Below are positions 1 to 13,904 of a stretch of 13,904 nt of DNA, in pieces (positions within the stretch are counted from its first letter, which is position 1; each line of letters starts with the position of its first letter). Origin of the DNA: a virus (lineage: Duplodnaviria > Heunggongvirae > Uroviricota > Caudoviricetes). The stretch lies in IMG/VR virus record IMGVR_UViG_2778261674_000001, positions 1 to 13,904 of that record. One strand, given 5' to 3'. The notes under the pieces are model-generated. The model worked only from the letters and a program-made list of their open reading frames with translations. It ran no database searches and had not been told where the DNA came from. The translations under genes were made by a program, and so were the position numbers.

Positions 1-623
1 AGAGTGTTAATCTCCTGCATGGTTTCATCGTTAACCGGAGTGATGTCGCGTTCCGGCTGACGTTCTGCAGTGTATGCAGTATTTTCGACAATGCGCTCGG
101 CTTCATCCTTGTCATAGATACCAGCAAATCCGAAGGCCAGACGGGCACACTGAATCATGGCTTTATGACGTAACATCCGTTTGGGATGCGACTGCCACGG
201 TCCGGTGATTTCTCTGCCTTCGCGGGTTTTGAATGGTTCGCGGCGGCATTCATCCATCCACTCGGTAACGCAGATCGGATGATTACGGTCCTTGCGGTAA
301 ATCCGGCATGTACATGATTCATTGTCCTGCTCAAAGTCCATGCCATCAAACTGCTGGTTTTCATTGATGATACGGGACCAGCCATCAACGCCCACCACCG
401 GAACGATGCCGTTCTGCTTGTCAGGGAAGGCGTAAATTTCTTTCGTCCACGGATTAAGGCCGTACTGGTTGGCGACGATCAACAATGCGATGAACTGCGC
501 ATCGCTGGCATCACCTTTAAATGCCGTCTGGCGAAGAGTGGTGATCAGTTCCTGTGGGTCGACAGAATCCATGCCGACACGTTCAGCCAGCTTCCCAGCC
601 AGCGTTGCGAGTGCTGTACTCAT
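1..623 (-). CDS. bet: Bet (Red-beta) single-strand annealing protein, N-terminal part only; the 3' end runs off the window edge
   Basis: Minus-strand translation from the ATG at 623-621 reads MSTALATLAGKLAERVGMDSVDPQELITTLRQTAFKGDASDAQFIALLIVANQYGLNPW..., matching lambda Bet as I recall it. The ORF track shows only a fragment (155..388) because the reading frame is open to the window edge. Confidence 0.9.
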   Translation of the reverse strand, partial: MSTALATLAGKLAERVGMDSVDPQELITTLRQTAFKGDASDAQFIALLIVANQYGLNPWTKEIYAFPDKQNGIVPVVGVDGWSRIINENQQFDGMDFEQDNESCTCRIYRKDRNHPICVTEWMDECRREPFKTREGREITGPWQSHPKRMLRHKAMIQCARLAFGFAGIYDKDEAERIVENTAYTAERQPERDITPVNDETMQEINT

Positions 624-628
624 CCGTT

Positions 629-1045
629 TTATACCTCTGAATCAATATCAACCTGGTGGTGAGCAATGGTTTCAACCATGTACCGGATGTGTTCTGCCAT
701 GCGCTCCTGAAACCCAACATCGTCATCAAACGCACGGGTAATGGCTTTTTTGCTGGCCCCGCAGCGTTGTAAATGATCGATGCAGAGCGATTCAAACAAA
801 TGCTGGGGCAGGCCTTTTTCCATGTCGTCTGCCAGTTCTGCCTCTTTCTCTTCACGGGCGATCTGCTGGTAGTGACGTGCCCAGCTCTGAGCCTCAAGAC
901 GATCCTGAATGTAATAAGCGTTCATGGCTGAACTCCTGAAATAGCTATGAAAATATCGCCCGCGAAATGCCGGGCTGATTAGGAAAACAGGAAAGAGGGT
1001 TAGTGAATGCTTTTGCTTGATCTCAGTTTCAGTATTAATATCCAT
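629..1045 (-). CDS. gam: Gam, host RecBCD inhibitor (138-aa long form; short GamS form would start at the ATG at 925-923)
   Basis: ORF-track protein ...[98 protein letters not shown] matches lambda Gam. The internal start MNAYYIQ is preceded by an AGGAG Shine-Dalgarno. The stop lies 5 nt upstream of the bet ATG, as in lambda. Confidence 0.9.
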
Positions 1046-1143
1046 TTTTTATAAGCGTCGACGGCCTCACGAAACATCTTTTCATCGCCAATAAAAGTGG
1101 CGATAGTGAATTTAGTCTGGATAGCCATAAGTGTTTGATCCAT
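1000..1143 (-). CDS. kil: Kil, host cell-division inhibitor (47 aa)
   Basis: Within track ORF 1000..1269 the internal start at 1143 gives [47 protein letters not shown], which is lambda Kil. It overlaps the gam and cIII ends as in lambda. Confidence 0.85.
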
Positions 1144-1276
1144 TTTTTGGGACTCCTGGCTGATTAAGTATGTCGATAAGGCGTTTCCATCCGTCACGTA
1201 ATTTACGGGTGATTCGTTCAAGTAAAGATTCGGAAGGGCAGCCAGCAACAGGCCACCCTGCAATGGCATATTGCAT
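1112..1276 (-). CDS. cIII: CIII, FtsH inhibitor that stabilises CII (54 aa)
   Basis: Within track ORF 1112..1348 the start at 1276 gives [54 protein letters not shown], which is lambda CIII. There is a 32-nt overlap with kil, as in lambda. Confidence 0.9.
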   Translation of the reverse strand: MQYAIAGWPVAGCPSESLLERITRKLRDGWKRLIDILNQPGVPKNGSNTYGYPD

Positions 1277-1348
1277 GGTGTGCTCCTTATTTATACATAA
1301 CGAAAAACGCCTCGAGTGAAGCGTTATTGGTATGCGGTAAAACCGCAC

Positions 1349-1717
1349 TCAGGCGGCCTTGATAGTCATATCATCTGAATCAAATATTCCTGATGTATCG
1401 ATATCGGTAATTCTTATTCCTTCGCTACCATCCATTGGAGGCCATCCTTCCTGACCATTTCCATCATTCCAGTCGAACTCGCACACAACACCATATGCAT
1501 TTAAGTCGCTTGAAATTGCTATAAGCAGAGCATGTTGCGCCAGCATGATTAATACAGCATTTAATACAGAGCCGTGTTTATTGAGTCGGTATTCAGAGTC
1601 TGACCAGAAATTATTAATCTGGTGAAGTTTTTCCTCTGTCATTACGTCATGATCGATTTCAATTTCTATTGATGCTTTCCAGTCGTAATCAATGATGTAT
1701 TTTTTGATGTTTGACAT
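1349..1717 (-). CDS. ea10: Ea10 (lambda early protein, 122 aa)
   Basis: The 122-aa ORF MSNIKKYIIDYDWKASIEIEIDHDVMTEEKLHQINNFWSDSEYRL... has the same length and position as lambda ea10 (between ral and cIII), and the sequence is recalled as lambda-like. Confidence 0.8.
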   Translation of the reverse strand: MSNIKKYIIDYDWKASIEIEIDHDVMTEEKLHQINNFWSDSEYRLNKHGSVLNAVLIMLAQHALLIAISSDLNAYGVVCEFDWNDGNGQEGWPPMDGSEGIRITDIDTSGIFDSDDMTIKAA

Positions 1718-1736
1718 CTATTCATATCCTCATAGA

Positions 1737-1763
1737 TAAAAAATCGCCCTCACACTGGAGGGC
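1737..1763 (-). terminator. Rho-independent terminator on the minus strand between ral and ea10 (tL2-like position)
   Basis: Perfect 6-bp stem GCCCTC(1746-1751)/GAGGGC(1758-1763) with a 6-nt loop. On the minus strand the hairpin is followed by a U-run (complement of AAAAAAT at 1737-1743). Confidence 0.55.
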
Positions 1764-1899
1764 AAAGAAGATTTCCAATAATCAGAACAAGTCGGCTCCT
1801 GTTTAGTTACGAGCGACATTGCTCCGTGTATTCACTCGTTGGAATGAATACACAGTGCAGTGTTTATTCTGTTATTTATGCAAAAAATAAAGGCCACTA

Positions 1900-2100
1900 T
1901 CAGGCAGCTTTGTTGTTCTGTTTACCAAGTTCTCTGGCAATCATTGCCGTAGTTCGTATTGCCCATTTATCGACATATTTCCCATCCTCCATTACAGGAA
2001 ACATTTCTTCAGGCTTAACCATGCATTCCGATTGCAGCTTGCATCCATTGCATCGCTTGAATTGTCCACACCATTGATTCTTATCAATAGTCGTAGTCAT
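1900..2100 (-). CDS. ral: Ral, restriction-alleviation protein (66 aa)
   Basis: The 66-aa ORF MTTTIDKNQWCGQFKRCNGCKLQSECMVKPEEMFPVMEDGKYVDKWAIRTTAMIARELGKQNNKAA matches lambda Ral in length and sequence as recalled. Confidence 0.85.
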   Translation of the reverse strand: MTTTIDKNQWCGQFKRCNGCKLQSECMVKPEEMFPVMEDGKYVDKWAIRTTAMIARELGKQNNKAA

Positions 2101-2170
2101 ACGGATAGTCCTGGTATTGTTCCATCACATCCTGAGGATGCTCTTCGAACTCTTCAAATTCTTCTTCCAT
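2084..2170 (-). CDS. Small ORF of 28 codons (MEEEFEEFEEHPQDVMEQYQDYPYDYDY) overlapping the ral start by 17 nt; corresponds to lambda orf28
   Basis: Hand-translated from the ATG at 2170-2168 to the TGA at 2086-2084. The length of 28 aa and the 17-nt overlap with ral match the lambda orf28 arrangement. Too short to appear in the ORF track. Confidence 0.6.
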   Translation of the reverse strand: MEEEFEEFEEHPQDVMEQYQDYPYDYDY

Positions 2171-2178
2171 ATCTCACC

Positions 2179-2505
2179 TCAAATAAGTGGTTTGCTGCCT
2201 AATTTCATTTTCTGGCGACCAACACAAGTCACACCTATTTCACTGCGTGGCTTGCTGTACCATGTGCGCTGATTCTTGCGCTCAATACGTTGCAGGTTGC
2301 TTTCAATCTGTTCGTGGTATTCAGCCAGCACCGTAAGGTCTATCGGATTCAGTGCGCTTTCTACTCGTGATTTCGGTTTGCGATTCAGCGAGAGAATAGG
2401 GCGGTTAACTGGCTTTGCGCTTACCCCAACCAACAGGGGATTTGCTGCTTTCCATTGAGCCTGTTTCTCTGCGCGACGTTCGCGGCGGCGTGTTTGTGCA
2501 TCCAT
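2179..2505 (-). CDS. N: N-type transcription antiterminator; lambda N-like with a diverged C-terminal third
   Basis: MDAQTRRRERRAEKQAQWKAANPLLVGVSAKPVNRPILSLNRKPKSRVESALNPIDLTVLAEYH... The arginine-rich N-terminus that binds boxB is lambda N. The C-terminus (...SKPRSEIGVTCVGRQKMKLGSKPLI) differs from the lambda sequence I recall. Shine-Dalgarno GGAGAA lies upstream of the ATG at 2505. Confidence 0.9.
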   Translation of the reverse strand: MDAQTRRRERRAEKQAQWKAANPLLVGVSAKPVNRPILSLNRKPKSRVESALNPIDLTVLAEYHEQIESNLQRIERKNQRTWYSKPRSEIGVTCVGRQKMKLGSKPLI

Positions 2506-2703
2506 CTGGATTCTCCTGTCAGTTAGCTTTGGTGATTGGATGGCCGGCGCTGAACCCCGGCTTACTGGTTAGAGCGCCCGCACTACCAGTGACGCTGTCT
2601 TGAGGCGCAGATTGGTTACTGCTTGCCATGAGCGCTGTTTATACATTGGTCGAGCATCAGCCTGCTCATTCATCCAATCCCAAAGCCTTCTGCTTTGAAT
2701 GCT

Positions 2704-2734
2704 GCCCTTCTTCAGGGCTTAATTTTTAAGAGCC
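2704..2734 (-). promoter_or_regulatory. nutL: boxA (GCTCTTAAA) followed by the boxB hairpin (GCCCTGAAGAAGGGC) on the minus strand
   Basis: The reverse complement of 2704-2734 reads GCTCTTAAAAATTAAGCCCTGAAGAAGGGC, which is the lambda nutL sequence. It lies between pL and N. Confidence 0.9.
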
Positions 2735-2766
2735 TCACCTTCATGGTGGTCAGTGCGTCCTGCTGA

Positions 2767-2817
2767 TGGGTAAACTTTATCGAAATGATAAATTAATGGC
2801 AATAGCAAAATGATAAA
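2767..2817 (-). promoter_or_regulatory. pL-like promoter with overlapping OL operators of non-lambda specificity
   Basis: The minus-strand transcript start region ATCAGCAGGACGCACTGACCACCATGAAGGTGA is as in lambda pL. Inferred -10 TAAAGT (plus 2774-2779) and -35 TTGCCA (plus 2797-2802) with a 17-bp spacer. One 17-bp palindromic operator TTTATCgaaatGATAAA at 2776-2792 and a weaker second site at 2801-2817 (AATAGCaaaatGATAAA). Lambda OL sequence is absent. Confidence 0.6.
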
Positions 2818-2995
2818 TTTCTTTGATTTTAAAATATCATATTGATTTTCATGGTGTTTTATTTTTGTTGCAGGAATTCGACAGGAGAAATGAAGAGGCT
2901 TGAGGGAGATCTGGATTGCGTGGTTTAGCAAGTTGTATTTATCAATTTTTCACTAAATACAATTGGTTATGTGTTTTTAGGTGGGGCGATCGTGA

Positions 2996-3026
2996 GGCAA
3001 AGAAAACCCGGCGCTGAGGCCGGGTT
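2996..3026 (-). terminator. Rho-independent terminator ending the minus-strand immunity-side operon (timm-like position)
   Basis: 8-bp stem AACCCGGC(3005-3012)/GCCGGGTT(3019-3026) with a 6-nt loop. On the minus strand it is followed by UUUUCUUUG (complement of 2996-3004). It sits just downstream of the stops at 3039/3055. Confidence 0.6.
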
Positions 3027-3038
3027 GTGAGGAATTAA

Positions 3039-3224
3039 TTACAGAGCAAAGAGATCATGCATTAGGTTGCTGTTCATCTGGTGGTTGAATTGATACGGCT
3101 CCAATTCCTTCTTGATCTCGTTCAGGTGTTGTTCCGCTTTTTTTGCCAGATCGTGACCTTCTTGGATCTGGCTTTCCAACATCTTGTTGAGAATTTCCAT
3201 CTCCGGTTGCAGATTCTTCGGCAT
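3039..3224 (-). CDS. Small ORF (61 aa from the ATG at 3224; up to 91 aa if started at 3314), predicted helical; nested out of frame in the 3' end of the protease-like gene
   Basis: Track ORF 3039..3314. The internal ATG at 3224-3222 is preceded by a strong Shine-Dalgarno AAGAGGAAA (complement of 3231-3239). The product MPKNLQPEMEILNKMLESQIQEGHDLAKKAEQHLNEIKKELEPYQ... looks like real helical protein. No homologue recognised. Confidence 0.4.
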   Translation of the reverse strand: MPKNLQPEMEILNKMLESQIQEGHDLAKKAEQHLNEIKKELEPYQFNHQMNSNLMHDLFAL

Positions 3225-4056
3225 TAGCTTTTTCCTCTTTTTGTAGATACGTTGTACAATCAATAACCCTCGGCTTTCCAAATGTTGGAATGTCACCATT
3301 ATGAATTTTGTCACAGAAAAGATTATAGAGTATTTCTGTTATACCTTTAGGATGCTCAACACACTTGAAAAGTTCCTTGGCTTCTTTTCTGTCGATAACA
3401 AATCCATGTGAAGGATATGAGGCTATTAGTTTGCCTAACGCCCCTTCTTTTAGGCTGCTTGGTTTGTCTGCTAATCGTTGGCCATAAGTGATAGCTATAC
3501 TCATTGCGCGCTGATGTTCACCAAGCTTTATTGGATCTATCTGTGCGGCCATAGGTGCTATCAACGCTTCTGTAAGTCTGGTCGCGATATCAGCAGACAT
3601 TTTGGTACTTATCTGATTTTCGTATCTTATCTTAACAAGGTGTGAGTTAAACGCTGAAATAGAGCGTTCCTTTAGAGCATCAAGAGCTGTCATGATAGCT
3701 AAACCAGAACTCATCTCACCTATTTCATCGTTTTTTTTCAGTTGGATATCTAATGGCCCAAGCTCCCCCATGTCACCAATAACAAGTTTATTGGCTGCTA
3801 TAGCTATTAGTGTACCAGCACTTTTGCATGGTCCAACAACTAAAAGTGTTACCGTTTCATAATGGTGCTGTAGAGCTCTACCTATACGATAACCTGCATT
3901 TGGATCACCGCCATAAGTAGCAACACAGAAGATAACATTCTCTTTTAATCCATGTTGTGACTTACGTTTCTTGATTTCATTGGTGAGATCAAGATAACCA
4001 TCACGATGAATATCGCCTGTATACACATAAACATCATGATTTTCAATAGAATTCAT
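3055..4056 (-). CDS. ClpP-fold serine-protease-like protein (SDH / peptidase S49-like), 333 aa; occupies the slot where lambda has rexAB
   Basis: ATG at 4056-4054 with Shine-Dalgarno AGGGAG upstream. Motifs TYGGDPNAGYRIGRAL ... VVGPCKSAGTLIAIAANKLVIGDMGELGPLDIQL resemble the SDH/S49/ClpP nucleophile region (G-x-x-x-S-x-G, Ser codon at 3822-3820). A possible catalytic His sits in YPSHGF. The last ~75 residues are low-complexity and overlap the nested ORF. Family assignment is from recalled motifs, not a search. Confidence 0.65.
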   Translation of the reverse strand: MNSIENHDVYVYTGDIHRDGYLDLTNEIKKRKSQHGLKENVIFCVATYGGDPNAGYRIGRALQHHYETVTLLVVGPCKSAGTLIAIAANKLVIGDMGELGPLDIQLKKNDEIGEMSSGLAIMTALDALKERSISAFNSHLVKIRYENQISTKMSADIATRLTEALIAPMAAQIDPIKLGEHQRAMSIAITYGQRLADKPSSLKEGALGKLIASYPSHGFVIDRKEAKELFKCVEHPKGITEILYNLFCDKIHNGDIPTFGKPRVIDCTTYLQKEEKANAEESATGDGNSQQDVGKPDPRRSRSGKKSGTTPERDQEGIGAVSIQPPDEQQPNA

Positions 4057-4222
4057 TCGTTAAACTCCCTGCTGTGGTTACGATGAATGTATTCATGTTG
4101 AAGCTAAGCCATAGCGGCTTGTCATCATCACCAATCTGGCGGAATTGACTGTTCATAAATCACAATTGGAATTACCCAAACGTCTCTTCAGGCCACTGGC
4201 TACCAGCTATGTGACGATGAAG

Positions 4223-4927
4223 TCACGAATTTTTCAGCCACTCCCTTGCCTCGATGTCATCCAGATGGCGAGATTGCTTCAGAATACCAGCCACATACTC
4301 CACCTTTGCTACTTGATGATAAGGCAACGTTATTGGCCTGTGGTCCTGGTTAATGCTTGTAAATTGGTATTCTCCATCTCTGTCATAGCCAAGAACCTTA
4401 ATCATGTTGTGTCCTTCAACGGTTCTGACAAACACCTCATCACCCGGGAATACTTTGGTGTTAGGCTCAATGAGTACATATTCTCCTGATTTTATTCTGG
4501 GCCACATGCTGTCTCCTTTCACACGAAGACCAAAGGCATCTGGATCATCGCTATAAATTTTGAGCCACCCATCGCGCTCTTCGGTCATCTCGATGGCACC
4601 ATCAACACCAAGAATTGCCTCACCAACCACGCGCACTAACCCTTTTCTTACCTGACCTACAAAAGTTAAAGAATCTGAGCATGATGCAATTGGTGTTACA
4701 TCATGTACCAAATCAAGCCACCCATTAGGTAACCCAAGTGCAGCTTCAAATTTTCTTGCTAGTTTATCCCCTATGTTTCGAGTGCTTTTTTCACCGGAGA
4801 CTTGCGTGAGTTGAGAAGGGCTAACCCCAAGCTTATCGGCAAAGCTTGCATTAGTGTTACCCGCGATTTTTTTATGCTCATCTAGCAAAAACGCCAGATT
4901 CGATTTGCGAATATCTTTGTTTTCCAT
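4223..4927 (-). CDS. CI-type prophage repressor: N-terminal HTH plus C-terminal LexA-like S24 autopeptidase domain; non-lambda immunity
   Basis: 234 aa. HTH-like segment NASFADKLGVSPSQLTQVSGEK near the N-terminus, and an S24 signature GDSMWPRI ... with the conserved Lys (MIKVLG) in the C-terminal half. Divergently arranged with the cro-like gene across the operator region. Shine-Dalgarno AGGGAG before the ATG. Confidence 0.85.
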   Translation of the reverse strand: MENKDIRKSNLAFLLDEHKKIAGNTNASFADKLGVSPSQLTQVSGEKSTRNIGDKLARKFEAALGLPNGWLDLVHDVTPIASCSDSLTFVGQVRKGLVRVVGEAILGVDGAIEMTEERDGWLKIYSDDPDAFGLRVKGDSMWPRIKSGEYVLIEPNTKVFPGDEVFVRTVEGHNMIKVLGYDRDGEYQFTSINQDHRPITLPYHQVAKVEYVAGILKQSRHLDDIEAREWLKNS

Positions 4928-5040
4928 CTCACAATTCTCCCTCTATTTAGCAAATGGATAAATACGCAATATGATAAATTTACATTGCAGTTGATTTATC
5001 AAAATGGTAAAGTTATTCTGTATGATAAACGGAGGCACTA
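4928..5040. promoter_or_regulatory. OR region: divergent pRM-like and pR-like promoters with at least three 17-bp operators of consensus TTTATC-N5-GATAAA
   Basis: Sites at 4946-4962 (TTTAGCaaatgGATAAA), 4995-5011 (TTTATCaaaatGGTAAA) and 5014-5030 (TTATTCtgtatGATAAA), plus an extra GATAAAT motif at 4973-4979. The same consensus occurs in OL (2776-2792). Candidate pR -10 TAAAGT at 5008-5013 and candidate extended -10 for pRM (TGcTAAAT on the minus strand, 4945-4952). Promoter hexamers are tentative. Confidence 0.6.
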
Positions 5041-5274
5041 ATGAGTAATGAACTACTACGCTGGCGAAAAGAGGCTTCTAGTGAGGAATGGAAGCGACTC
5101 GCCGCATTAGCGAAAACTTCAGTTGGCTATCTTGACCAGATTGCATATGGATTTCGAAGAGCTTCCCCTGATAAAGCGAATGCAATCGAAGAAGCTACTC
5201 GTAATTTCACGGCTTATAAACCCGTGAAAAAGGAAAACCTGGTGTTCGTATCGCGTAGAGCATCAGCAGCATAA
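5041..5274 (+). CDS. Cro-like first gene of the rightward operon (YdaS/Cro-family HTH protein, 77 aa)
   Basis: First ORF downstream of OR with Shine-Dalgarno GGAGG at 5031-5035. The segment RRASPDKANAIEEATRNFTAYKPVKKENL resembles the YdaS/Cro family signature (...P.AIE.AT...). Not lambda Cro. Confidence 0.7.
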   Translation: MSNELLRWRKEASSEEWKRLAALAKTSVGYLDQIAYGFRRASPDKANAIEEATRNFTAYKPVKKENLVFVSRRASAA

Positions 5275-5281
5275 ATAACCC

Positions 5282-5313
5282 CGCTCTTACACATTCCAGC
5301 CCTGAAAAAGGGC
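5282..5313 (+). promoter_or_regulatory. nutR: boxA CGCTCTTAC plus boxB GCCCTGAAAAAGGGC
   Basis: CGCTCTTACACATTCCAGCCCTGAAAAAGGGCA at 5282-5314 is the lambda nutR sequence as recalled. The 15-nt boxB forms a 5-bp stem with a GAAAA loop. Confidence 0.9.
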
Positions 5314-5389
5314 ATTACCAGAAACAAATCTCTATGGTTTTGCGTTTCTTTGCGAAGCCAACTCTATCTAATCATTAAGGAAATTATCT

Positions 5390-5671
5390 ATGGGTACTAT
5401 TGCAACTAAAAGCAAGAAAGCGGCTCGCATCGAGTCAGCCTTGCTGAACAAACTGGCACTGATGGGGCAGAAGACATTCGCTCGAGCGATGGGGGTTCCT
5501 GAATATCAGGTAAGCCGATGGAAGAATGGTTTCTTCTCGCAGGTAAGCATGATGCTGGCTGTTCTGGAATACGGAATCGAAGACGATGAAATGGCTGAGC
5601 TGACTAAGCGGCTTGCCAATTACCTGACAAAAGAAAAAGCCCCGAAGAACGGCGAATTCTTCGAGGCCTGA
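5390..5671 (+). CDS. cII: CII-like transcriptional activator (93 aa)
   Basis: MGTIATKSKKAARIESALLNKLALMGQKTFARAMGVPEYQVSRWKNGFFSQVSMMLAVLEYGIEDDEMAELTKRL... aligns by eye with lambda CII (..ALRIESALLNKIAMLGTEKTAEAVGVDKSQISRWKRDWIPKFSMLLAVLEWGVVDDDMARL..). Shine-Dalgarno AAGGA upstream. Confidence 0.85.
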   Translation: MGTIATKSKKAARIESALLNKLALMGQKTFARAMGVPEYQVSRWKNGFFSQVSMMLAVLEYGIEDDEMAELTKRLANYLTKEKAPKNGEFFEA

Positions 5672-5705
5672 TGTAGAAAGACTGGATCAATCCACAGGAG
5701 TCATT

Positions 5706-5867
5706 ATGACAAAACGTCGTAAGAAATACCAGGAAAAAGAAGAGATTCGACACCCTGATTCACCTGAGGGATTAGTGGTAGCCGCAGCAAATAACAGGGC
5801 GTTCGCAGAGCGCCTTGTTGGTGTTTACAGACTAGCCAAAGCAGGAGTGAAACATGGGCGTCGTTAA
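5706..5867 (+). CDS. Small basic ORF (53 aa, [53 protein letters not shown]) overlapping the start of the O-like gene
   Basis: Hand-translated and absent from the ORF track. ATG at 5706 preceded by Shine-Dalgarno AGGAG (5697-5701). It ends 14 nt inside the O-like ORF, suggesting translational coupling. No homologue recognised. Confidence 0.4.
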   Translation: MTKRRKKYQEKEEIRHPDSPEGLVVAAANNRAFAERLVGVYRLAKAGVKHGRR

Positions 5868-6675
5868 GTTAGCTGATTACAGGCCTCAACTTGAGGTCGT
5901 GGAGCATCGCGTGGCAGATACCGAAGATGGTTTCATGCGCGTTGCTAACGAGATTACCGACAGTCTGCTGATGGCTGATTTAACCGTCCGGCAGTTGAAG
6001 GTGATGCTCGCTATCATGCGCAAGACATACGGATTCAATAAGCCGATGGATCGACTCACAAACACGCAGATAGCAGCCATGACAGGTATTCATCACACTC
6101 ATGTTTGCGCTGCCAAGCGCCAGCTTATCGAGCGTAAATTCCTCATTGCTGATGGCGTGAAAATCGGAGTGAACAAGGTGGTTTCTCAGTGGATTAGCCA
6201 GGACAGCTTAACATTAGCTAAAACAGCTAATAAAACATTAGCCGAGTCGGCTAATGGGTATAAGCCAAGTCAGCTAAACACAAAAGACAATATACAAAAG
6301 ACAATAAATACAAATACCCCCTTACCCCCTAACGGGGGAGGCGATGGGCAGGTTAAACCTGAACGTCGCAAGGCAGAACGAATCGACTACGAATCCTTCC
6401 TGAACGCCTACAACACCGAAGTCGGTGACAGACTTCCACATGCTGTTGCGGTCAACGAGAAACGCAAACGCCGCCTGAAGAAAATCATCCCGCAACTGAA
6501 AACGCCAAACGTGGACGGTTTCAGAGCGTATGTCAGGGCGTTTGTGCATCAGGCCAAGCCGTTTTACTTCGGAGACAACGACACGGGCTGGACGGCAGAT
6601 TTTGATTACCTGCTGAGGGAAGATTCGTTAACGGGAGTACGGGAAGGGAAGTTTGCAGACAGGGGGATTGCATGA
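5854..6675 (+). CDS. O: Replication initiator, lambda O-like N-terminal domain with a different C-terminal domain (273 aa)
   Basis: [39 protein letters not shown] aligns with lambda O (ADLTKRQFKVLLAILRKTYGWNKPMDRITDSQLSEIT). Shine-Dalgarno AGGAG before the ATG. The gene contains iterons plus an AT-rich stretch, as expected for a lambdoid origin. Confidence 0.85.
6193..6316. repeat. Putative replication origin inside the O-like gene: four ~19-bp iterons (consensus ATTAGC-N7-GCTAAT) followed by an AT-rich segment
   Basis: Iterons at 6193-6211 (degenerate), 6213-6231 (ATTAGCTaaaacAGCTAAT), 6237-6255 (ATTAGCCGAGTCGGCTAAT, a perfect palindrome) and 6260-6278 (degenerate). AT-rich ACAAAAGACAATATACAAAAGACAATAAATACAAATAC at 6279-6316. 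Architecture parallels ori-lambda. Confidence 0.6.
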
Positions 6676-8048
6676 GACAGGATATCGAAGCGAGCGTTAT
6701 CGGTGGCCTGCTGATTGGTGGATTAACACCAACCGCCAGCGACGTTCTGGCAACGCTGGAGCCGGAAGCGTTTTCAATTCCGCTCTACCGGAAAGCCTTC
6801 GAGGTTATCCGCAAGCAGGCGAGAAACAGAAACCTAATCGATGCGCTGATGGTTGCCGAGGCGTGCGGAGAGGAGCATTTCACGTCAATCCTGATGACCA
6901 GCAAAAACTGCCCGAGTGCCGCAAACCTGAAGGGATATGCCGGAATGGTCGCGGATAACTATCACCGCCGTCTGGTGCTGGAAATCATGGATGAAATGCG
7001 TGAACCAATTCAGAGCGGAACCATCGACGCATCGAGTCAGGCGATGGATGAGCTTGTAAAGCGTCTTTCAGCCATCAGAAAGCCCCGTGACGAGGTTAAA
7101 CCTGTACGGTTAGGGGAAATCATTACTGACTACACTGACACGCTTGACAGGCGTCTGAGGAACGGAGAAGAGTCAGATACCCTGAAGACCGGAATCGAAG
7201 AACTTGACGCCATCACCGGAGGGATGAACGCGGAAGACCTGGTGATAATCGCTGCTCGTCCTGGTATGGGGAAAACCGAACTGGCGCTGAAGATTGCCGA
7301 AGGCGTTGCAAGCCGCGTTATTCCTGGTTCTGACGTCCGGCGCGGGGTATTGATTTTCTCAATGGAAATGAGCGCATTGCAGATTGCAGAGCGAAGCATT
7401 GCCAACGCCGGGAGGATGTCGGTTAGTGTGCTGCGAAATCCTGCAGCGATGGATGACGAAGGCTGGGCGCGCGTTGCTAACGGCATGAGTCAGCTTGCAG
7501 ATTTGGATGTATGGGTAGTCGATGCCTCGCGGTTATCGGTCGAAGAAATACGCTCAATCGCAGAACGGCACAAACAGGAAAATCCAAACCTCTCACTCAT
7601 CATGGTGGATTATCTTGGCCTGATTGAGAAGCCGAAAGCAGACCGCAACGACCTCGCAATTGCTCACATCTCCGGAAGCCTGAAGGCGATGGCGAAAGAC
7701 CTGAAAACGCCCGTTATCTCCCTGAGTCAGCTTTCTCGCGATGTTGAGAAGCGACCAAACAAACGCCCGACAAACGCAGATTTGCGTGATTCAGGAAGCA
7801 TTGAACAGGACGCAGACTCAATCATCATGCTCTATCGGGAAGCGGTATATGACGAGAACAGTAGCGCCGCGCCATTTGCTGAAATCATCGTAACGAAAAA
7901 CCGTTTTGGCTCGCTTGGTACGGTTTACCAGCGGTTCTGCAACGGACACTTTGTTGCATGTGACCAGGATGAAGCCAGACAGATTTGCACAACATCAAAT
8001 GCACCTGCTGCACGTGGCAGACGATATGCACAAGGGGCTGACGTATGA
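6672..8048 (+). CDS. DnaB-family replicative helicase (P22 gene 12-like), 458 aa
   Basis: Walker [16 protein letters not shown], DnaB-like N-terminal domain ([12 protein letters not shown]...) and C-terminal RecA-like motifs ([20 protein letters not shown]). The start overlaps the O-like stop (ATGA). This replaces a lambda P-type loader. Confidence 0.85.
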
Positions 8049-8125
8049 CCATCTACATCACTGAGCTTGTAACAGGCCTGCTGGTAATCGCAGGCCTTTT
8101 TATTTGGGGGAGAGGGAAGTCATGA
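8045..8125 (+). CDS. Possible 26-aa hydrophobic peptide ([26 protein letters not shown]) translationally coupled between the helicase and ninB
   Basis: Its ATG overlaps the helicase stop (ATGA at 8045-8048) and its TGA overlaps the ninB ATG (8122-8125). It has a single predicted transmembrane-like segment. Speculative; it could simply be an intergenic spacer. Confidence 0.25.
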
Positions 8126-8562
8126 AAAAACTAACCTTTGAAATTCGATCTCCAGCACATCAGCAAAACGCTATTCACGCAGTACAGCAAATCCTTCCAG
8201 ACCCAACCAAACCAATCGTAGTAACCATTCAGGAACGCAACCGCAGCTTAGACCAAAACCGAAAGCTTTGGGCTTGCCTTGGTGACGTCTCTCGTCAGGT
8301 TGAATGGCATGGTCGCTGGCTGGATGCAGAAAGCTGGAAGTGTGTGTTTACCGCAGCATTAAAGCAGCAGGACGTTGTTCCTAACCTTGCCGGGAATGGC
8401 TTTGTGGTAATAGGCCAGTCAACCAGCAGGATGCGTGTAAGCGAATTTGCGGAGCTATTAGAGCTTATACAGGCATTCGGTACAGAGCGTGGCGTTAAGT
8501 GGTCAGACGAAGCGCGACTGGCTCTCGAATGGAAAGCGCGATGGGGAGATCGGGCTGCATGA
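8122..8562 (+). CDS. ninB: NinB (Orf family recombination mediator), 146 aa
   Basis: [74 protein letters not shown]... matches lambda NinB. Shine-Dalgarno GGGAGAGGGAAG upstream. The track ORF start at 8104 is a spurious upstream extension. Confidence 0.9.
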   Translation: MKKLTFEIRSPAHQQNAIHAVQQILPDPTKPIVVTIQERNRSLDQNRKLWACLGDVSRQVEWHGRWLDAESWKCVFTAALKQQDVVPNLAGNGFVVIGQSTSRMRVSEFAELLELIQAFGTERGVKWSDEARLALEWKARWGDRAA

Positions 8563-9086
8563 CTATCAAATCAAATACGCCAGCACACGACAAGGACTGC
8601 TGGCAAACGCCGCTTTGGCTTTTTGATGCACTGGATATTGAGTTTGGATTCTGGCTGGATTCGGCAGCGAGCGACAAAAATGCTCTGTGTGCTCACTGGC
8701 TAACTGAGTCCGACGACGCTCTCAATTCTGAGTGGGTAAGCCACGGTGCAATCTGGAATAACCCACCGTACAGCAATATCAGGCCGTGGGTGGAAAAAGC
8801 CGCTGAGCAGTGCATACAACAACGACAGACGGTAGTGATGCTTGTGCCAGAGGATATGTCAGTCGGATGGTTCAGCAAGGCTCTGGAGAGTGTCGACGAA
8901 GTTCGCATTATCACTGATGGACGGATTAATTTTATCGAACCATCGACAGGGCTGGAGAAGAAGGGAAACAGCAAAGGCTCCATGCTGCTGATTTGGCGAC
9001 CGTTCATCAGTCCTCGACGGATGTTTACTACCGTATCCAAAGCGGCATTGATGGAGATCGGGCAGGGCGTCAGGAGGGCGGCATGA
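8559..9086 (+). CDS. Phage Dam-family DNA N6-adenine methyltransferase (orphan), 175 aa
   Basis: Internal start [25 protein letters not shown]... overlaps the ninB stop (ATGA). The catalytic NPPY motif lies at nt 8760-8771. The CWQTP...NPPY arrangement is typical of the small phage Dam family. Confidence 0.8.
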
Positions 9087-9259
9087 GGCGACAGCGACGA
9101 AGCATCACCGACATAATCTGCGAAAACTGCAAATACCTTCCAACGAAACGCTCCAGAAATAAACGCAAGCAAATCCCAAAAGAATCTGACGTAAAAACCT
9201 TCAACTACACGGCTCACCTGTGGGATATCCGGTGGCTAAGACATCGTGCGAGGAAATGA
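9083..9259 (+). CDS. ninE: NinE-like protein (58 aa)
   Basis: [58 protein letters not shown] matches lambda/DLP12 NinE as recalled. The start overlaps the methyltransferase stop (ATGA). Confidence 0.75.
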
Positions 9260-9261
9260 CA

Positions 9262-9603
9262 ATGGATTATTCACAGTTAAGTGATTTTGAAATTAACAGA
9301 ATGGTAGGAGACATAATTTTTAAAGGACTTTGGGCATGTAAACCGGAAACGTCAGGGAATAACACCAACAAATGGTATTACGGAAATGCTGATACAACTT
9401 TTGAGCCATTAAATCATTTGCCTGACTACTGCAATGATCCGAGCGCTTCATGGCCGATTATTGAGAAATACAGGATTTCTATCTTAGACCAGTTAACTGA
9501 ATGGTGTGTGGATGCAAAAGGCGTAAGCCCAATATTTGATACCAGACCTCTCCGCGCCGCCATGATTGTCTTTCTCCTGATGCAGGAGGCCAATAATGCT
9601 TAG
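9262..9603 (+). CDS. Hypothetical nin-region protein (113 aa)
   Basis: ORF with Shine-Dalgarno GAGGA 7 nt upstream of the ATG at 9262 (an alternative ATG at 9256 overlaps the ninE stop). [70 protein letters not shown]... No function recognised. Confidence 0.6.
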
Positions 9604-9772
9604 CCCATCCCAATCCCTTCAATACCAGAAAGAAAGCGTCGAGCGGGCTTTAACGTGCGCTAACTGCGGTCAGAAGCTGCATGTGCTGGAAGTTCACATG
9701 TGTGAGCACTGCTGCGCAGAACTGATGAGCGATCCGAATAGCTCAATGCACGAGGAAGAAGACGATGAATGA
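9596..9772 (+). CDS. ninF: NinF (58 aa, Cys-rich)
   Basis: Hand-translated: [58 protein letters not shown], matching lambda NinF as recalled. Absent from the track because it is under 60 aa. Confidence 0.75.
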
Positions 9773-10487
9773 GTTAATAAATGGCAATGCCATCAAAATG
9801 ACAAGCATTGAAATCGCTGAGTTGGTTGGTAAGCGTCATGACAATGTGAAACGTACCATCGAAACGCTGGCTAAAAATGGTGTTATCCGGCTTCCTCAAA
9901 TTGAGGTTTCCGAAAGAATCAATAACTTAGGGTTCAATGTTCAGTACGAGCATTACGTTTTCGAAGGCGAACAAGGTAAGCGAGACAGTATTGTCGTTGT
10001 TGCCCAGTTGTCGCCGGAATTCACCGCTCGCCTTGTTGACCGCTGGCGAGAGCTTGAAGAAGCTGCGGTTAATATCCCCAAAACGCTACCAGAAGCGTTG
10101 CGCCTTGCTGCTGATCTTGCTGAGCAGAAAATGCAACTGGAAAACCAGCTCGCAATTGCCGCACCTAAAGTTGAGTTTGCCGATCGCGTTGGCGAGGCCA
10201 GCGGAATTTTGATTGGAAACTTTGCAAAGGTTGTCGGTATTGGTCCAAACAAACTGTTTGCGTGGATGCGCGATCACAAAATCCTTATTGCTTCAGGTTC
10301 CCGGCGCAATGTGCCAATGCAGGAATATATGGATCGCGGCTATTTCACAGTGAAAGAAACAGCGGTCAACACAAATCACGGAATACAGATATCGTTCACC
10401 ACAAAAATCACCGGGCGTGGTCAACAGTGGCTGACCAGAAAGCTGCTCGATAACGGAATGCTGAAAGTAACAGGTGAGGCTGCTTAA
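9765..10487 (+). CDS. Rha-N / KilA-C (ANT) domain protein, antirepressor-like or Roi-like (240 aa)
   Basis: N-terminus MTSIEIAELVGKRHDNVKRTIETL is a Rha-family signature. The C-terminal half (ILIGNFAKVVGIGPNKLFAWMRDHKILIASGSRRNVPMQEYMDRGYFTVKE...) resembles the KilA-C/ANT domain. Domain calls are from recalled motifs. Confidence 0.7.
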   Translation: MNELINGNAIKMTSIEIAELVGKRHDNVKRTIETLAKNGVIRLPQIEVSERINNLGFNVQYEHYVFEGEQGKRDSIVVVAQLSPEFTARLVDRWRELEEAAVNIPKTLPEALRLAADLAEQKMQLENQLAIAAPKVEFADRVGEASGILIGNFAKVVGIGPNKLFAWMRDHKILIASGSRRNVPMQEYMDRGYFTVKETAVNTNHGIQISFTTKITGRGQQWLTRKLLDNGMLKVTGEAA

Positions 10488-10777
10488 TGGCTAATCTACG
10501 CAAAGAAGCACGCGGCAGAGAATGCCAGGTACGTATTTACGGCGTATGCAATGGCAACCCTGAAACTACAGTTCTGGCACATTATCGGATGGCTGGAATT
10601 TGCGGAACGGGAATGAAGCCTGACGACCTGATCGGCGCATGGGCTTGTAGCGCGTGTCACGATGAAATCGACCGACGCACCCATAATCTCGACAACAAAG
10701 ACGCCAGACTTTACCACCTCGAAGGCGTGATCAGGACGCAGGCGATACTGCTGAAGGAGGGGAAGATTAAGTCATGA
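10487..10777 (+). CDS. ybcO: YbcO-like DUF1364 protein (Cys/His-rich, putative nuclease), 96 aa
   Basis: MANLRKEARGRECQVRIYGVCNGNPETTVLAHYRMAGICGTGMKPDDLIGAWACSACHDEIDRRTH... closely resembles DLP12 YbcO as recalled. Confidence 0.8.
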   Translation: MANLRKEARGRECQVRIYGVCNGNPETTVLAHYRMAGICGTGMKPDDLIGAWACSACHDEIDRRTHNLDNKDARLYHLEGVIRTQAILLKEGKIKS

Positions 10778-11136
10778 ACGAATATCAGTTTGTGCTTCCA
10801 TACCCGCCGTCGGTGAACACCTACTGGCGAAGACGGGGAAGCCAATACTACATCAGCGATAAAGGCCAGAAATACCGAAAAGACGTTCAGCAAATCATCC
10901 GCCAACTCAAGTTAGACATTTTCACCAAATCACGACTCCGCATCAAAGTCATCGCAGACGTTCCAGACTCCCGCCGCCGCGACCTCGACAACATCCTGAA
11001 AGGTTTACTCGATTCCCTTATCCACGCCGGATTTGCGGAAGACGACGAGCAATTCGATGACATTCGCGTAATTCGTGGTGTGAAAGTACCAGGCGGACGG
11101 CTTGGAATAAAAATCACCGAACTGGAGAACGCATGA
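10774..11136 (+). CDS. rusA: RusA Holliday-junction resolvase (120 aa)
   Basis: LPYPPSVNTYWRRRG...PDSRRRDLDNILKGLLDSLIHAGFAEDDEQFDDIRV parallels E. coli RusA (LPWPPSNNRYY...[24 protein letters not shown]..DD). The catalytic Asp cluster is conserved. Confidence 0.85.
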   Translation: MNEYQFVLPYPPSVNTYWRRRGSQYYISDKGQKYRKDVQQIIRQLKLDIFTKSRLRIKVIADVPDSRRRDLDNILKGLLDSLIHAGFAEDDEQFDDIRVIRGVKVPGGRLGIKITELENA

Positions 11137-11321
11137 ACGCCACAATTCAAACGATACCAGAGCTTCTTATCCAGACACGAGGCAATCAGACCGAAGTGGC
11201 AAGGATGCTTTCCTGCGCAAGAGGAACAGTGCTCAAGTACAACCGAGACAGCAAAGGCGAGCGTCACGTAATAGTTAACGGCGTCCTGATGGTCAAACAG
11301 GGCAAGAGGGGTAGACCATGA
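11133..11321 (+). CDS. ninH: NinH-like small DNA-binding protein (62 aa)
   Basis: MNATIQTIPELLIQTRGNQTEVARMLSCARGTVLKYNRDSKGERHVIVNGVLMV resembles lambda NinH (..KTIPDMLVEAYGNQTEVARRLKCSRGTVRKY...VLMV). Confidence 0.8.
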   Translation: MNATIQTIPELLIQTRGNQTEVARMLSCARGTVLKYNRDSKGERHVIVNGVLMVKQGKRGRP

Positions 11322-11941
11322 GACTCGAAAGTGTAGCTAAATTTCATTCGCCAAAAAGCCCGATGATGAGCGACTCACCACGGGCTACGGCTTCTGACTC
11401 TCTTTCCGGTACTGATGTGATGGCTGCTATGGGGATGGCGCAATCACAAGCCGGGTTCGGAATGGCTGCATTCTGTGGTAAGCACGAACTCAGCCAGAAC
11501 GACAAACAAAAGGCTATCAACTATCTGATGCAATTTGCACACAAGGTATCGGGGAAATACCGTGGCGTGGCAAAGCTTGAAGGAAATACTAAGGCAAAGG
11601 TACTGCAAGTGCTCGCAACATTCGCTTATGCGGATTATTGCCGTAGTGCCGCGACGCCTGGCGCAAGATGCAGAGATTGCCACGGTACAGGTCGGGCGGT
11701 TGATATTGCCAAAACGGAGCAGTGGGGGAGAGTTGTTGAGAAAGAGTGCGGAAGATGCAAAGGTGTCGGCTATTCAAGAATGCCAGCAAGCGCCGCATAT
11801 CGCGCTGTGACGATGCTAATCCCAAACCTTACTCAACCCACCTGGTCACGCACTGTTAAGCCTCTGTATGACGCTCTGGTGGTGCAATGCCACAAAGAAG
11901 AGTCAATCGCAGACAACATTTTGAATGCGGTCACACGTTAG
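11318..11941 (+). CDS. Q: Q late-gene antiterminator, lambda type (207 aa)
   Basis: MRLESVAKFHSPKSPMMSDSPRATASDSLSGTDVMAAMGMAQSQAGFG... through ...CHKEESIADNILNAVTR is lambda Q essentially throughout, as recalled. Confidence 0.95.
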   Translation: MRLESVAKFHSPKSPMMSDSPRATASDSLSGTDVMAAMGMAQSQAGFGMAAFCGKHELSQNDKQKAINYLMQFAHKVSGKYRGVAKLEGNTKAKVLQVLATFAYADYCRSAATPGARCRDCHGTGRAVDIAKTEQWGRVVEKECGRCKGVGYSRMPASAAYRAVTMLIPNLTQPTWSRTVKPLYDALVVQCHKEESIADNILNAVTR

Positions 11942-11983
11942 CAGCATGATTGCCACGGATGGCAACATATTAACGGCATGATA

Positions 11984-12025
11984 TTGACTTTTTGAATAAA
12001 GTTGGGTAAATTTGACATCAACGAT
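11984..12025 (+). promoter_or_regulatory. pR' late promoter with overlapping qut site
   Basis: -35 TTGACT (11984-11989), 17-bp spacer, -10 TAAATT (12007-12012). The sequence is near-identical to lambda pR' with a few substitutions. Confidence 0.85.
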
Positions 12026-12212
12026 GGGTTAATTCGCTCGTTGTGGTAGTGAGATGAAAAGAGGCGGCGCTTACTACCGATTCCGCCTAGTTGGTCACTT
12101 CGACGTATCGTCTGGAACTCCAACCATCGCAGGCAGAGAGGTCTGCAAAATGCAATCCCGAAACAGTTCGCAGGTAATAGTTAGAGCCTGCATAACGGTT
12201 TCGGGATTTTTT
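12019..12212 (+). ncRNA. 6S RNA: short pR' transcript ending at tR' (about 194 nt)
   Basis: The region between pR' and the T-tract at 12207-12212 is lambda-identical as recalled. The inferred length of about 194 nt equals that of lambda 6S RNA. Confidence 0.7.
12154..12212 (+). terminator. tR' terminator (read through under Q antitermination)
   Basis: ATCCCGAAAC (12154-12163) pairs with GTTTCGGGAT (12198-12207), followed by a T-run to 12212. Same sequence as lambda tR'. Confidence 0.8.
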
Positions 12213-12618
12213 ATATCTGCACAACAGGTAAGAGCATTGAGTCGATAATCGTGAAGAGTCGGCGAGCCTGGTTAGCCAGTGCTCTTTCCGTTGTGCTGAA
12301 TTAAGCGAATACCGGAAGCAGAACCGGATCACCAAATGCGTACAGGCGTCATCGCCGCCCAGCAACAGCACAACCCAAACTGAGCCGTAGCCACTGTCTG
12401 TCCTGAATTCATTAGTAATAGTTACGCTGCGGCCTTTTACACATGACCTTCGTGAAAGCGGGTGGCAGGAGGTCGCGCTAACAACCTCCTGCCGTTTTGC
12501 CCGTGCATATCGGTCACGAACAAATCTGATTACTAAACACAGTAGCCTGGATTTGTTCTATCAGTAATCGACCTTATTCCTAATTAAATAGAGCAAATCC
12601 CCTTATTGGGGGTAAGAC

Positions 12619-12942
12619 ATGAAGATGCCAGAAAAACATGACCTGTTGGCCGCCATTCTCGCGGCAAAGGAACAAGGCATCGGGGCAATCCTTGCGTTTG
12701 CAATGGCGTACCTTCGCGGCAGATATAATGGCGGTGCGTTTACAAAAACAGTAATCGACGCAACGATGTGCGCCATTATCGCCTGGTTCATTCGTGACCT
12801 TCTCGACCTCGCCGGACTAAGTAGCAATCTCGCTTATATAACGAGCGTGTTCATCGGCTACATCGGTACTGACTCGATTGGTTCGCTTATCAAACGCTTC
12901 GCTGCTAAAAAAGCCGGAGTAGAAGATGGTGGAAATCAATAA
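12619..12942 (+). CDS. S: S holin (S107/S105 dual-start motif ATG AAG ATG)
   Basis: [62 protein letters not shown]... is lambda S, 107 aa. The second start codon is at 12625. Confidence 0.95.
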
Positions 12943-13402
12943 TCAACGTAAGGCGTTCCTCGATATGCTGGCGTGGTCAGAGGGAACTGATAACGGACGG
13001 CAGAAAACCAGAAATCATGGTTATGACGTCATTGTTGGCGGAGAGCTATTCACTGATTACTCCGATCACCCTCGCAAACTTGTCACGCTAAACCCAAAAC
13101 TCAAATCAACAGCCGCCGGACGTTACCAGCTTCTTTCCCGTTGGTGGGATGCCTACCGCAAGCAGCTTGGCCTGAAAGACTTCTCTCCCAAAAGCCAGGA
13201 CGCTGTGGCACTGCAACAGATTAAAGAGCGTGGCGCTTTACCGATGATTGATCGCGGTGATATCCGTCAGGCAATCGACCGTTGCAGCAATATCTGGGCT
13301 TCGTTGCCCGGGGCTGGTTATGGCCAGTTCGAGCATAAGGCTGACAGCCTGATTGCAAAATTCAAAGAAGCTGGCGGAACAGTCAGAGAGATTGAGGTAT
13401 GA
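12926..13402 (+). CDS. R: R endolysin (lytic transglycosylase), 158 aa
   Basis: [77 protein letters not shown]... is lambda R. It overlaps the 3' end of S as in lambda. Confidence 0.95.
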
Positions 13403-13836
13403 GCAGAGTAACCGCGATTATCTCCGCTCTGGTTATCTGCATCATCGTCTGCCTGTCATGGGCTGTTAATCATTACCGTGATAACGCCATCGCCTACAAA
13501 GAGCAGCGCGATAAGGCCGCATCCATCATCGCTGATATGCAGAAGCGTCAACGTGATGTAGCAGAACTCGACGCCAGATACACAAAGGAGCTTGCTGATG
13601 CTAACGCGACTATCGAAAGTCTCCGTGCTGATGTTTCTGCTGGTCGTAAGCGCCTGCAAGTCGCCGCCACCTGTGCAAAGTCAACGACCGGAGCCAGCGG
13701 CATGGGCGATGGAGAAAGCCCAAGACTTACAGCAGATGCTGAACTCAATTATTACCGTCTACGAAGCGGAATCGACAGGATAACCGCGCAGGTTAACTAC
13801 CTGCAGGAGTACATCAGGACTCAGTGCCTGAAATAA
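13399..13836 (+). CDS. Rz: Rz (i-spanin), 145 aa; N-terminus is lambda-like, the remainder diverged
   Basis: [31 protein letters not shown]... matches lambda Rz for about 30 residues and then diverges. Start overlaps the R stop (ATGA). Confidence 0.85.
13592..13783 (+). CDS. Rz1: Rz1 (o-spanin lipoprotein), embedded in the +1 frame of Rz
   Basis: 63-aa [32 protein letters not shown]... with a signal peptide, a lipobox-like VSAC and a Pro-rich mature region. It lies wholly inside Rz in another frame, the canonical Rz/Rz1 arrangement. Confidence 0.75.
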
Positions 13837-13867
13837 TTTTTTTGCAAATCACAAAGTCCATTTAATG

Positions 13868-13891: not shown

Positions 13892-13904
13892 GCAATAAAT
13901 GCGT

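Follow-up and report, generated by a model that had tools for sequence, protein, structure and literature searches.

The early/immunity region of a lambdoid Escherichia coli prophage carries, in the interval that holds rexA-rexB in lambda, a protease gene with a second gene overprinted on its C-terminal coding region. The region belongs to a tailed phage (Caudoviricetes; IMG/VR record IMGVR_UViG_2778261674_000001), of which positions 1 to 13,904 were analyzed, a stretch of 13,904 nucleotides (nt) hereafter called the window. The first gene encodes a 333-amino-acid (aa) protein of predicted ClpP/crotonase fold, and the second, which is unannotated, encodes a 61-aa protein read in the +1 frame. 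The original prediction for this DNA had proposed a ClpP-fold protease-like cassette in the rexAB slot as a candidate lysogen-expressed phage-exclusion system. We favor the reading that the pair would form a lysogen-expressed, toxin-antitoxin-like exclusion module of protease and partner, with a probability of roughly 0.4. That the pair has some anti-phage role may be given slightly better than even odds. It could further represent a new prophage-borne class of abortive infection (Abi) or toxin-antitoxin-like system, in which a ClpP-fold effector is paired with a single-helix controller overprinted on it; we put this forward tentatively, as the bolder and rather unlikely form of the proposal.

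Judging by the selection acting on it, the nested open reading frame (ORF) is a genuine 61-aa gene that is conserved across the family. A nested small ORF had been listed in the original prediction and does exist (3039..3314, 91 aa from a GTG codon); it holds the 61-aa gene from ATG 3224, whose role as a partner had been missed. An artefact of the low-complexity protease tail would also leave the +1 frame open, as the hydrophilic frame-0 tail predicts openness, and for this reason selection signatures were used as evidence instead of the open frame. Over the last ~55 protease codons, the ratio of nonsynonymous to synonymous substitution (dN/dS) in the annotated frame is ~1 and dS is unusually low. 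A frame-resolved analysis of the overlap region gave a ratio of nonsynonymous to synonymous diversity (pN/pS) of 0.35-0.55 in the +1 frame, where pS is near-saturated, compared with 0.6-1.6 in frame 0. In a sliding window, the canonical coding pattern jumps sharply from frame 0 to frame +1 at gene nt ~840, past which the +1-frame diversity at codon positions 1/2/3 is 0.31/0.22/0.44. The switch is replicated in five independent subclades (the L049 group, L091/L096, L076/L078, L074/L098 and L068/L095), and the +1 coding signature continues beyond the protease stop codon where the +1 ORF is longer.

The peptide itself shows the same conservation. In the enterobacterial clade it is of the type MPKNLQPEMEILNKML...LEPYQFN...DLFAL and is preceded by a conserved GAGGA-N8-ATG; distant peptide types begin M-x-[KT]-x-[HY]-Q-T-P-x2-[LVM]-x2-A-[LM], with a Met 3-4 residues ahead of the QTP motif in seven distant lineages. 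A hidden Markov model (HMM) of the enterobacterial peptide matched 25 loci, and none in frame 0, frame +2 or shuffled controls. Gene finders have called the 61-aa protein in eight database clusters, unnamed or as 'hypothetical' and with no Pfam match, and the small gene is not annotated in RefSeq and phage records; a conserved out-of-frame partner gene thus appears to have gone unrecognised in annotation. The small ORF is also found in the loci checked outside IMG/VR, namely in Mannheimia and Neisseria (as chromosomal orphans), Bartonella, Burkholderia, Klebsiella and E. coli. AlphaFold2 (AF2) predicts one long helix spanning residues 3-60 (predicted local distance difference test score 86), with heptad-like hydrophobic spacing.

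The length of the overlap argues in the same direction. It measures 100-212 nt in most lineages and only 12-62 nt in about seven, so the two genes are separable; in these seven or so the small ORF lies mostly downstream of the protease stop codon. Averaged over lineages, 71% of the small ORF is covered by an open protease frame, and codon shuffles give 36% (Fisher p ~8e-11, 39 lineages); because this exceeds the shuffle expectation, both frames are maintained. The unit is therefore two genes and not one, since the nested ORF is a conserved partner in a dual-coding overlap, and what looks like a disordered protease tail is an overprinted frame. It is improbable that the +1 ORF lacks independent translation, either as the tail artefact mentioned above or as a helix fused to the protease by a programmed +1 frameshift. 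Such an explanation would fit the failure of the peptide HMM in distant clades and the flagging of SD-like (Shine-Dalgarno-like) motifs in only ~60% of lineage representatives. It does not fit the canonical +1 codon-position pattern with its low pN/pS, repeated across subclades and past the protease stop, nor the conserved start signals of the enterobacterial clade and the seven distant lineages, the ORFs lying mostly past the protease stop or the eight database calls, and no slippery or stop-codon shift site was seen.

Two observations concern the end of the small protein. In the enterobacterial clades its C-terminus is conserved, being acidic and then hydrophobic (DLFAL, ELFAL, ELFSF, EYCSF or DYFCM), and from these sequences it resembles a docking or degron-like tail. 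Separately, the SppA of Bacillus subtilis is among the top structural neighbors of the protease, and the title of structure entry 4kwb describes its active sites as occupied by its own C-terminal peptide.

The protease ORF is a real gene with a core under strong purifying selection (pN/pS 0.02-0.23; codon-position diversity 0.18/0.08/0.53). The original prediction had described a minus-strand 333-aa ORF with the motifs GPCKSAGT, ELGPLDIQL and YPSHG, and this description holds in every detail, including the position of codon 79 at nt 3822-3820. The motifs contain S79, D103 (nt 3750-3748) and H217 (nt 3408-3406), which, together with K78, C77, D222, E225 and R57, are invariant in 69 of 69 distinct homologues. 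S79, D103 and H217 are the candidate catalytic residues: S79 aligns with the ClpP nucleophile, and the order of the three is Ser-Asp-His, as in the SDH type. H181 (in GEHQRA) was considered as the catalytic His and rejected, being a His in just 34 of the 69 homologues. No signal peptide, N-terminal anchor or membrane segment was found in the protein; the top 19-residue hydropathy (1.71) belongs to the buried nucleophile strand. In the AF2 model (36-sequence alignment), residues ~10-270 are confident and residues 278-333 disordered. Foldseek comparisons agree on a ClpP/crotonase fold, with SppA and ClpP as the nearest solved folds and 'serine dehydrogenase proteinases' as the nearest viral models, and a sequence search of solved structures with the protease gave nothing significant. 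On these residues and this model, the protein is very probably a soluble and active serine protease.

Its family membership is less simple than its fold. The original prediction had pointed to three Pfam families, and the protease stays below threshold for two of them: SDH_protease (PF01972), its best Pfam match, reaches 29.6 bits where the gathering score is 31.3 and covers residues 44-108 only, and CLP_protease scores 19 bits against 20.2. Peptidase_S49 gave no match at E<=0.1. Among NCBIfam models, NF047768 (Clp_like_SDH) scores 36.7 bits against a cut-off of 250 and NF045542 (head-maturation ClpP-related) 34.4 bits against 120. Many homologues do have a precomputed PF01972 match, and we therefore regard the protease as a divergent offshoot at the margin of the SDH family. 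Only ~65 of its residues match family HMMs, and the C-terminal half (the helical region 118-270, which contains H217) is family-specific. In PHROGs, the protease belongs to phrog_21683 of 'unknown function' (E=8e-185), with weak matches to the head-maturation protease families phrog_1684 (E=4e-7) and phrog_53. The Prokaryotic Genome Annotation Pipeline (PGAP) names it 'SDH family Clp fold serine proteinase', and elsewhere it is called 'SppA protein', a name with no model behind it. At least 1,574 homologues are found in Enterobacterales, Bartonella, Neisseria, Pasteurellaceae and Malonomonas.

These weak matches to phrog_1684 and NF045542, the nearest solved folds and the SppA name might suggest an ordinary capsid-maturation (prohead) protease or a housekeeping ClpP or SppA homologue, the finding that the original prediction had named as contrary to its proposal. 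All scores are below the family cut-offs, however, and the protein has neither a Peptidase_S49 match nor a transmembrane anchor. The catalytic His of ClpP lies at Ser+25, and Ser+24 of our protein is Asp (D103), not His. Furthermore, its gene is found on the lysogenic strand of the immunity region, away from the head module, and is exchangeable cargo that is missing from sister phages. Position and scores effectively refute this identity, and the protease is neither ClpP nor SppA nor a prohead protease. Compared with the SDH (PF01972/NF047768), SppA (S49), NfeD 1510-N and ClpP (S14) families in general, it falls below the family thresholds and comes without a membrane anchor or ATPase partner.

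The pair occupies an exchangeable slot of the immunity region, in which the gene order is cI, cargo, terminator, OL/pL, nutL and N. Phages with the same immunity and other cargo lose homology to the window at 3027 and regain it at 4171, which places the mobile cassette at 3028-4170; the range of 2830-4222 first proposed was too wide, including ~200 nt of shared OL/pL flank. Between the same flanks, mEp506 carries HicA/B/C, BP-4795 carries a HigB-family toxin, a helix-turn-helix (HTH) protein and one further gene, and in AU5Stx1 the slot is nearly empty. In a spread sample of 1,332 E. coli genomes having these flanks, the cargoes include HigB-type modules, a DUF3024 gene, unnamed small genes and RexA/RexB. 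The repressor accession is the same in prophages with rexAB or other cargo, and in E. coli 23CRST013 an identical cI protein (WP_021572762.1) is followed by rexA-rexB, so that the term 'rexAB slot' is literally right. The reverse exchange occurs as well, as the same protease allele is found behind another cI/cro allele. In one such locus (L004, E. coli WP4-S18-ESBL-08, 4782-6293), a stretch that comprises the protease allele and the flank on the OL/pL side, 94% identical to window 2681-4202, adjoins a cI/cro allele unlike that of the window.

The orientation and composition of the cassette are as first described, with protease (3055..4056) and repressor (4223..4927) both on the minus strand and a G+C content of 0.399 in the cassette compared with 0.437 in the rest of the immunity region and 0.475 in the window; the AT-richness is real, but the difference is modest. 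The proposed terminator at 2996-3026 does have a hairpin and a T-run. It is not dedicated to the cassette, however, because it is placed in a flank common to phages with other cargo, rexAB included. Its hairpin, AACCCGGC-N6-GCCGGGTTTT, is the same after HicABC, a near-empty slot, rexAB and divergent protease variants; it is the slot's common tIMM-like terminator and lies outside the cassette. The features of the region are collected in Table 1.

Table 1. Features of the cI-to-N interval (window coordinates).
Feature	Position	Strand	Description
Protease ORF, predicted ClpP/crotonase-fold serine protease	3055..4056	-	Folded core ~1-277; tail ~278-333 disordered, in overlap
Small +1-frame gene, unannotated	3039..3224	-	61-aa predicted amphipathic single helix, MPKNLQPEMEILNKMLESQIQEGHDLAKKAEQHLNEIKKELEPYQFNHQMNSNLMHDLFAL; SD GAGGA 3237-3233, ATG 3224-3222
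Dual-coding overlap	3055..3224	-	170 nt; protease tail in frame 0, small protein in frame +1
Mobile cargo cassette	3028..4170	-	Made up of leader, protease gene and the small gene that overlaps it; bounded by the breakpoints seen in phages of the same immunity that carry other cargo
Cassette leader	4057..4170	-	Ribosome-binding site AGGGAG (4070-4065), 8 nt before ATG
cI-type repressor	4223..4927	-	HTH + Peptidase_S24; Pfam Peptidase_S24 E=3.8e-16; PHROG transcriptional repressor
Junction 3' of cI	4171..4222	-	Kept whatever the cargo; homology to mEp506, BP-4795 and AU5Stx1 restarts at 4171
Intrinsic terminator	2996..3026	-	Hairpin 3026-3005 and T-run, from scan; within shared flank
pL-like promoter and nutL	2704..2802	-	Predicted to drive N (sequence and scan); downstream boundary of the slot

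The neighborhoods of protease relatives were compared at 80 viral-contig loci (39-100% identity), and the repressor-then-protease arrangement recurs in them. Peptidase_S24 was found in 33 of the 71 immediate upstream neighbors, in all cases on the same strand and 16-491 nt away. After dereplication, an S24 neighbor is present in 15 of 35 protease clusters (70% identity), and the S24 neighbors fall into 23 repressor clusters (50% identity) and form 22 distinct pairings. By our estimate, a random gene in a prophage of ~50 genes would land behind the repressor a few per cent of the time. Bartonella has the same arrangement, and in Klebsiella Rac-type prophages the protease lies behind an HTH-only repressor divergent from YdaS/YdaT. 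The family of protease and helix spans Proteobacteria and recurs in repressor operons. Further copies adjoin the integrase at prophage ends, lie opposite an XRE/ImmA pair or stand beside phage or satellite genes. About half of the upstream neighbors are unrelated (nuclease, SRAP, tail protein and unknowns), and the viral-contig neighborhoods contain no conserved partner besides the 61-aa gene. One Bartonella locus (L010) has two HTH + Peptidase_S24 genes within 4 kb on the same strand (2078-2857 and 5227-5922), the second directly upstream of the protease homologue.

This recurrent site directly downstream of S24 repressors of 23 clusters, and also behind the HTH-only repressor in Klebsiella, could mean that the module serves the prophage's own lysis-lysogeny circuit, with the protease acting on the repressor (or its fragments), on antirepressors or on a host factor for induction or maintenance. 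The order would resemble that of ImmR-ImmA pairs, in which the repressor gene is likewise followed by the protease gene. However, the same cI/cro/operator set exists with rexAB, toxin-antitoxin genes or nothing in place of the module, and the lysogeny switch does therefore not need it. In addition, these repressors have an S24 autocleavage domain of their own, and the copies far from repressors, by integrases or as chromosomal orphans, as well as the unrelated half of the upstream neighbors, are not explained by a role in this circuit. We consider such a role quite unlikely.

Cassettes that are not behind a repressor share a nucleotide block, TTTGAAAAA...TCCGATATCTT, ~200 nt upstream of the protease (L001, 4802-5017; L031-L037). 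The block is probably a promoter or operator and not a gene; the MK422450 record lists a 71-aa hypothetical protein here, the peptide of which is not conserved. A small upstream 'hypothetical protein' of Klebsiella phage ST13-OXA48phi12.4 was considered as a partner of the protease and rejected, as the peptide is unconserved and overlies the promoter-like block, which has no counterpart in the window.

The favored reading, an exclusion module expressed in the lysogen, would work as follows. The repressor presumably opens a lysogenic operon, and co-transcription of the protease, which starts 166 nt downstream on the same strand, is plausible from this layout. It is the most likely arrangement because the module occupies the cI-to-terminator slot. 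A scan predicted no promoter or terminator in the 166-nt gap and found no sigma-70-like promoter or terminator in the cassette leader; the ribosome-binding site is good, and the shared terminator follows directly after the protease unit. Repressor and protease would thus be transcribed together from pRM/pRE in the lysogen, with transcripts ending at the tIMM-like terminator. As in toxin-antitoxin pairs, the small coiled-coil-type helix would bind the cytoplasmic protease, which it would inhibit, gate or adapt in specificity. A second phage infecting the cell might then upset this balance or provide a trigger, upon which the protease would cut a host or phage protein and the infection would fail, through exclusion or abortive infection. 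The outcome would be functionally analogous to that of RexAB, BstA and the toxin-antitoxin modules of the slot.

Several points weigh against this reading. PADLOC matched neither protein, its sole match being one of chance level for the small ORF (E=0.023); the original prediction had likewise recognised no ClpP-fold protease as the effector of a named anti-phage system. Literature searches on the protease family, on mEp506 and on ClpP-like anti-phage proteins found no relevant paper in the library that could be searched. The hotspot position amounts to guilt by association, and the slot also carries genes of unknown role. Orphan homologues occur in Mannheimia and Neisseria chromosomes without phage or defence context. 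The peptide HMM does not reach beyond the enterobacterial clade, with only 25 loci matched, and the start codons of the small ORFs in distant lineages were assigned heuristically. Finally, a labile inhibitor combined with the shut-off of pRM at induction would expose the prophage to its own protease, so that self-immunity would be needed.

The toxin-antitoxin-like build, with two co-oriented, overlapping genes of which the small one is downstream as in the higBA and hicAB modules of the slot, is also what would be expected of a selfish addiction or stabilisation module, or of a lysogenic-conversion 'moron' that alters host physiology by proteolysis, with no role against other phages. The orphan chromosomal copies are compatible with this alternative, as is the precedent of bstA, which was first tied to virulence phenotypes. 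On the other hand, most of the characterised cargo of the slot (rexAB, bstA and, by analogy, toxin-antitoxin genes) acts on other phages, and the protease has no secretion signal or transmembrane segment suggesting a surface or virulence role. We regard this alternative as unlikely, although less so than a role in the lysis-lysogeny circuit.

The cI-N interval is a recognised mosaic hotspot, which in lambda holds rexAB, and bstA is a validated prophage Abi gene downstream of cI (Owen et al., 2021; PMC8585504). Compared with lambda RexA/RexB, the pair described here occupies the identical slot with the same orientation relative to cI, the same presumed promoter and the same terminator hairpin, in the order cI-cargo-terminator-OL/pL-nutL-N that matches cI-rexA-rexB-tIMM of lambda, and both are two-gene units. 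However, the protease pair has no sequence or fold kinship with them. RexA acts as a sensor and RexB sits in the membrane; our pair would consist of a soluble ClpP-fold protease and a 61-aa helix in overlapping frames. BstA likewise is encoded behind the repressor on the same strand, and there is a likeness in concept, as the self-control element aba lies inside bstA and the partner described here is encoded inside the protease gene (PMC8585504). The two systems differ in that BstA is an unrelated single protein with a DNA-based anti-BstA element and has here as its counterpart a second protein in another frame.

The toxin-first type II modules of the slot, higBA-like in BP-4795 and hicAB(C) in mEp506, share with the pair the slot, the flanks and the compact, co-oriented genes with the presumed effector first. 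Unlike their RNases, the effector here would be a 30-kDa protease, the partner has no HTH or DNA-binding domain, and the 170-nt out-of-frame overlap contrasts with a short junction overlap. The Tai (tail assembly inhibition) system was considered as an identity and rejected, as it has no protease component and a different location. It is doubtful whether such a protease is really absent from all named systems, on the ground that DefenseFinder reportedly includes FS_HP_SDH_sah, said to have been described by Fillol-Salom et al. in 2022 as a two-gene anti-phage system of enterobacterial mobile elements, made up of a hypothetical protein and an SDH_sah (PF01972) protease encoded by phage-inducible chromosomal islands (PICIs). 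Our pair would resemble it in the best Pfam match of its protease, PF01972, and in having a small partner. It would differ in scoring below the PF01972 and NF047768 cut-offs, in lying in prophage immunity regions and not in PICIs, and in having as partner an overprinted downstream ORF. The kind of element, lysogeny-expressed cargo of the repressor-downstream hotspot, is well known, and the protease/helix cargo itself is uncharacterised.

The remainder of the window is typical of lambdoid phages, with Gam, cIII (with its thermoregulator), Ral, N, cI, cro-like, cII, O/P-type replication, Nin, Q and lysis genes. The cIII region is lambda-like, with the Rfam family Lambda_thermo (cIII thermoregulator) at 1231-1289 on the minus strand (88.5 bits; gathering score 50). 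The lambda-like N lies at 2179-2505 (Pfam N36, E=1.5e-26), and upstream of it are the pL-like promoter at 2802-2774 and nutL, with a boxA-like gctcttaa and a lambda-type boxB, GCCCTGAAGAAGGGC, at 2718-2704. The prophage of strain STEC346 (L003) matches window 2401-5400 at 99.97% identity and is nearly identical to the window throughout the stretch between N and cII. Between its ral and N genes lies sieB (superinfection exclusion B; 4870-5352, compare window ~1700-2180), a gene absent from the window, which indicates mosaicism immediately left of N.

Further observations concern the borders of the slot. The element GGCCTGAAGAGACGTTTGGGTAA (4172-4194, minus strand) lies within the junction just 3' of the cI stop codon and is present in L003, L006, L024-L029 and L040; these are loci with differing cargo and, in L040, a 72%-identical cassette variant behind another S24 repressor. 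It may serve as a joint for recombination, or it may signal processing of the immunity transcript. A hairpin (TGTGACG-ATGAAG-TCACG, 4210-4227) spans the cI stop codon and has a terminator-like score on the plus strand only; because the coding (minus) strand is without a U-run, it should not halt cI transcripts. In the E. coli genomes H91-H93, the terminator-side flank of the slot abuts a gene for an 'NYN domain-containing protein', another candidate nuclease-type cargo.

Whatever the function of the pair, the 170-nt dual-coding overlap hides a gene missed by PGAP and by most phage annotations, and for this reason the family is a clean case for studies of overprinting. It also means that anyone who clones or deletes the 'SDH family protease' as a single gene would gain or lose a second protein without being aware of it. 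The two genes can be uncoupled cleanly by single substitutions on the minus strand: T3223C abolishes the start codon of the small ORF and leaves Asn278 of the protease unchanged, and G3219T turns protease codon 280 (Glu) into a stop, which removes the tail, without altering the Pro encoded in the small ORF; the function is therefore directly testable. The repressor-downstream slot of temperate phages is the home of RexAB and BstA, and new immunity mechanisms are readily found among its cargo. If the favored reading is true, a self-contained ClpP-fold effector would bring in proteolysis, a mechanism seldom seen in the defences characterised so far. In the bolder form of the proposal, the module, which is habitually wired into phage repressor operons, would constitute a dedicated protease switch coupled to the lysogenic state.

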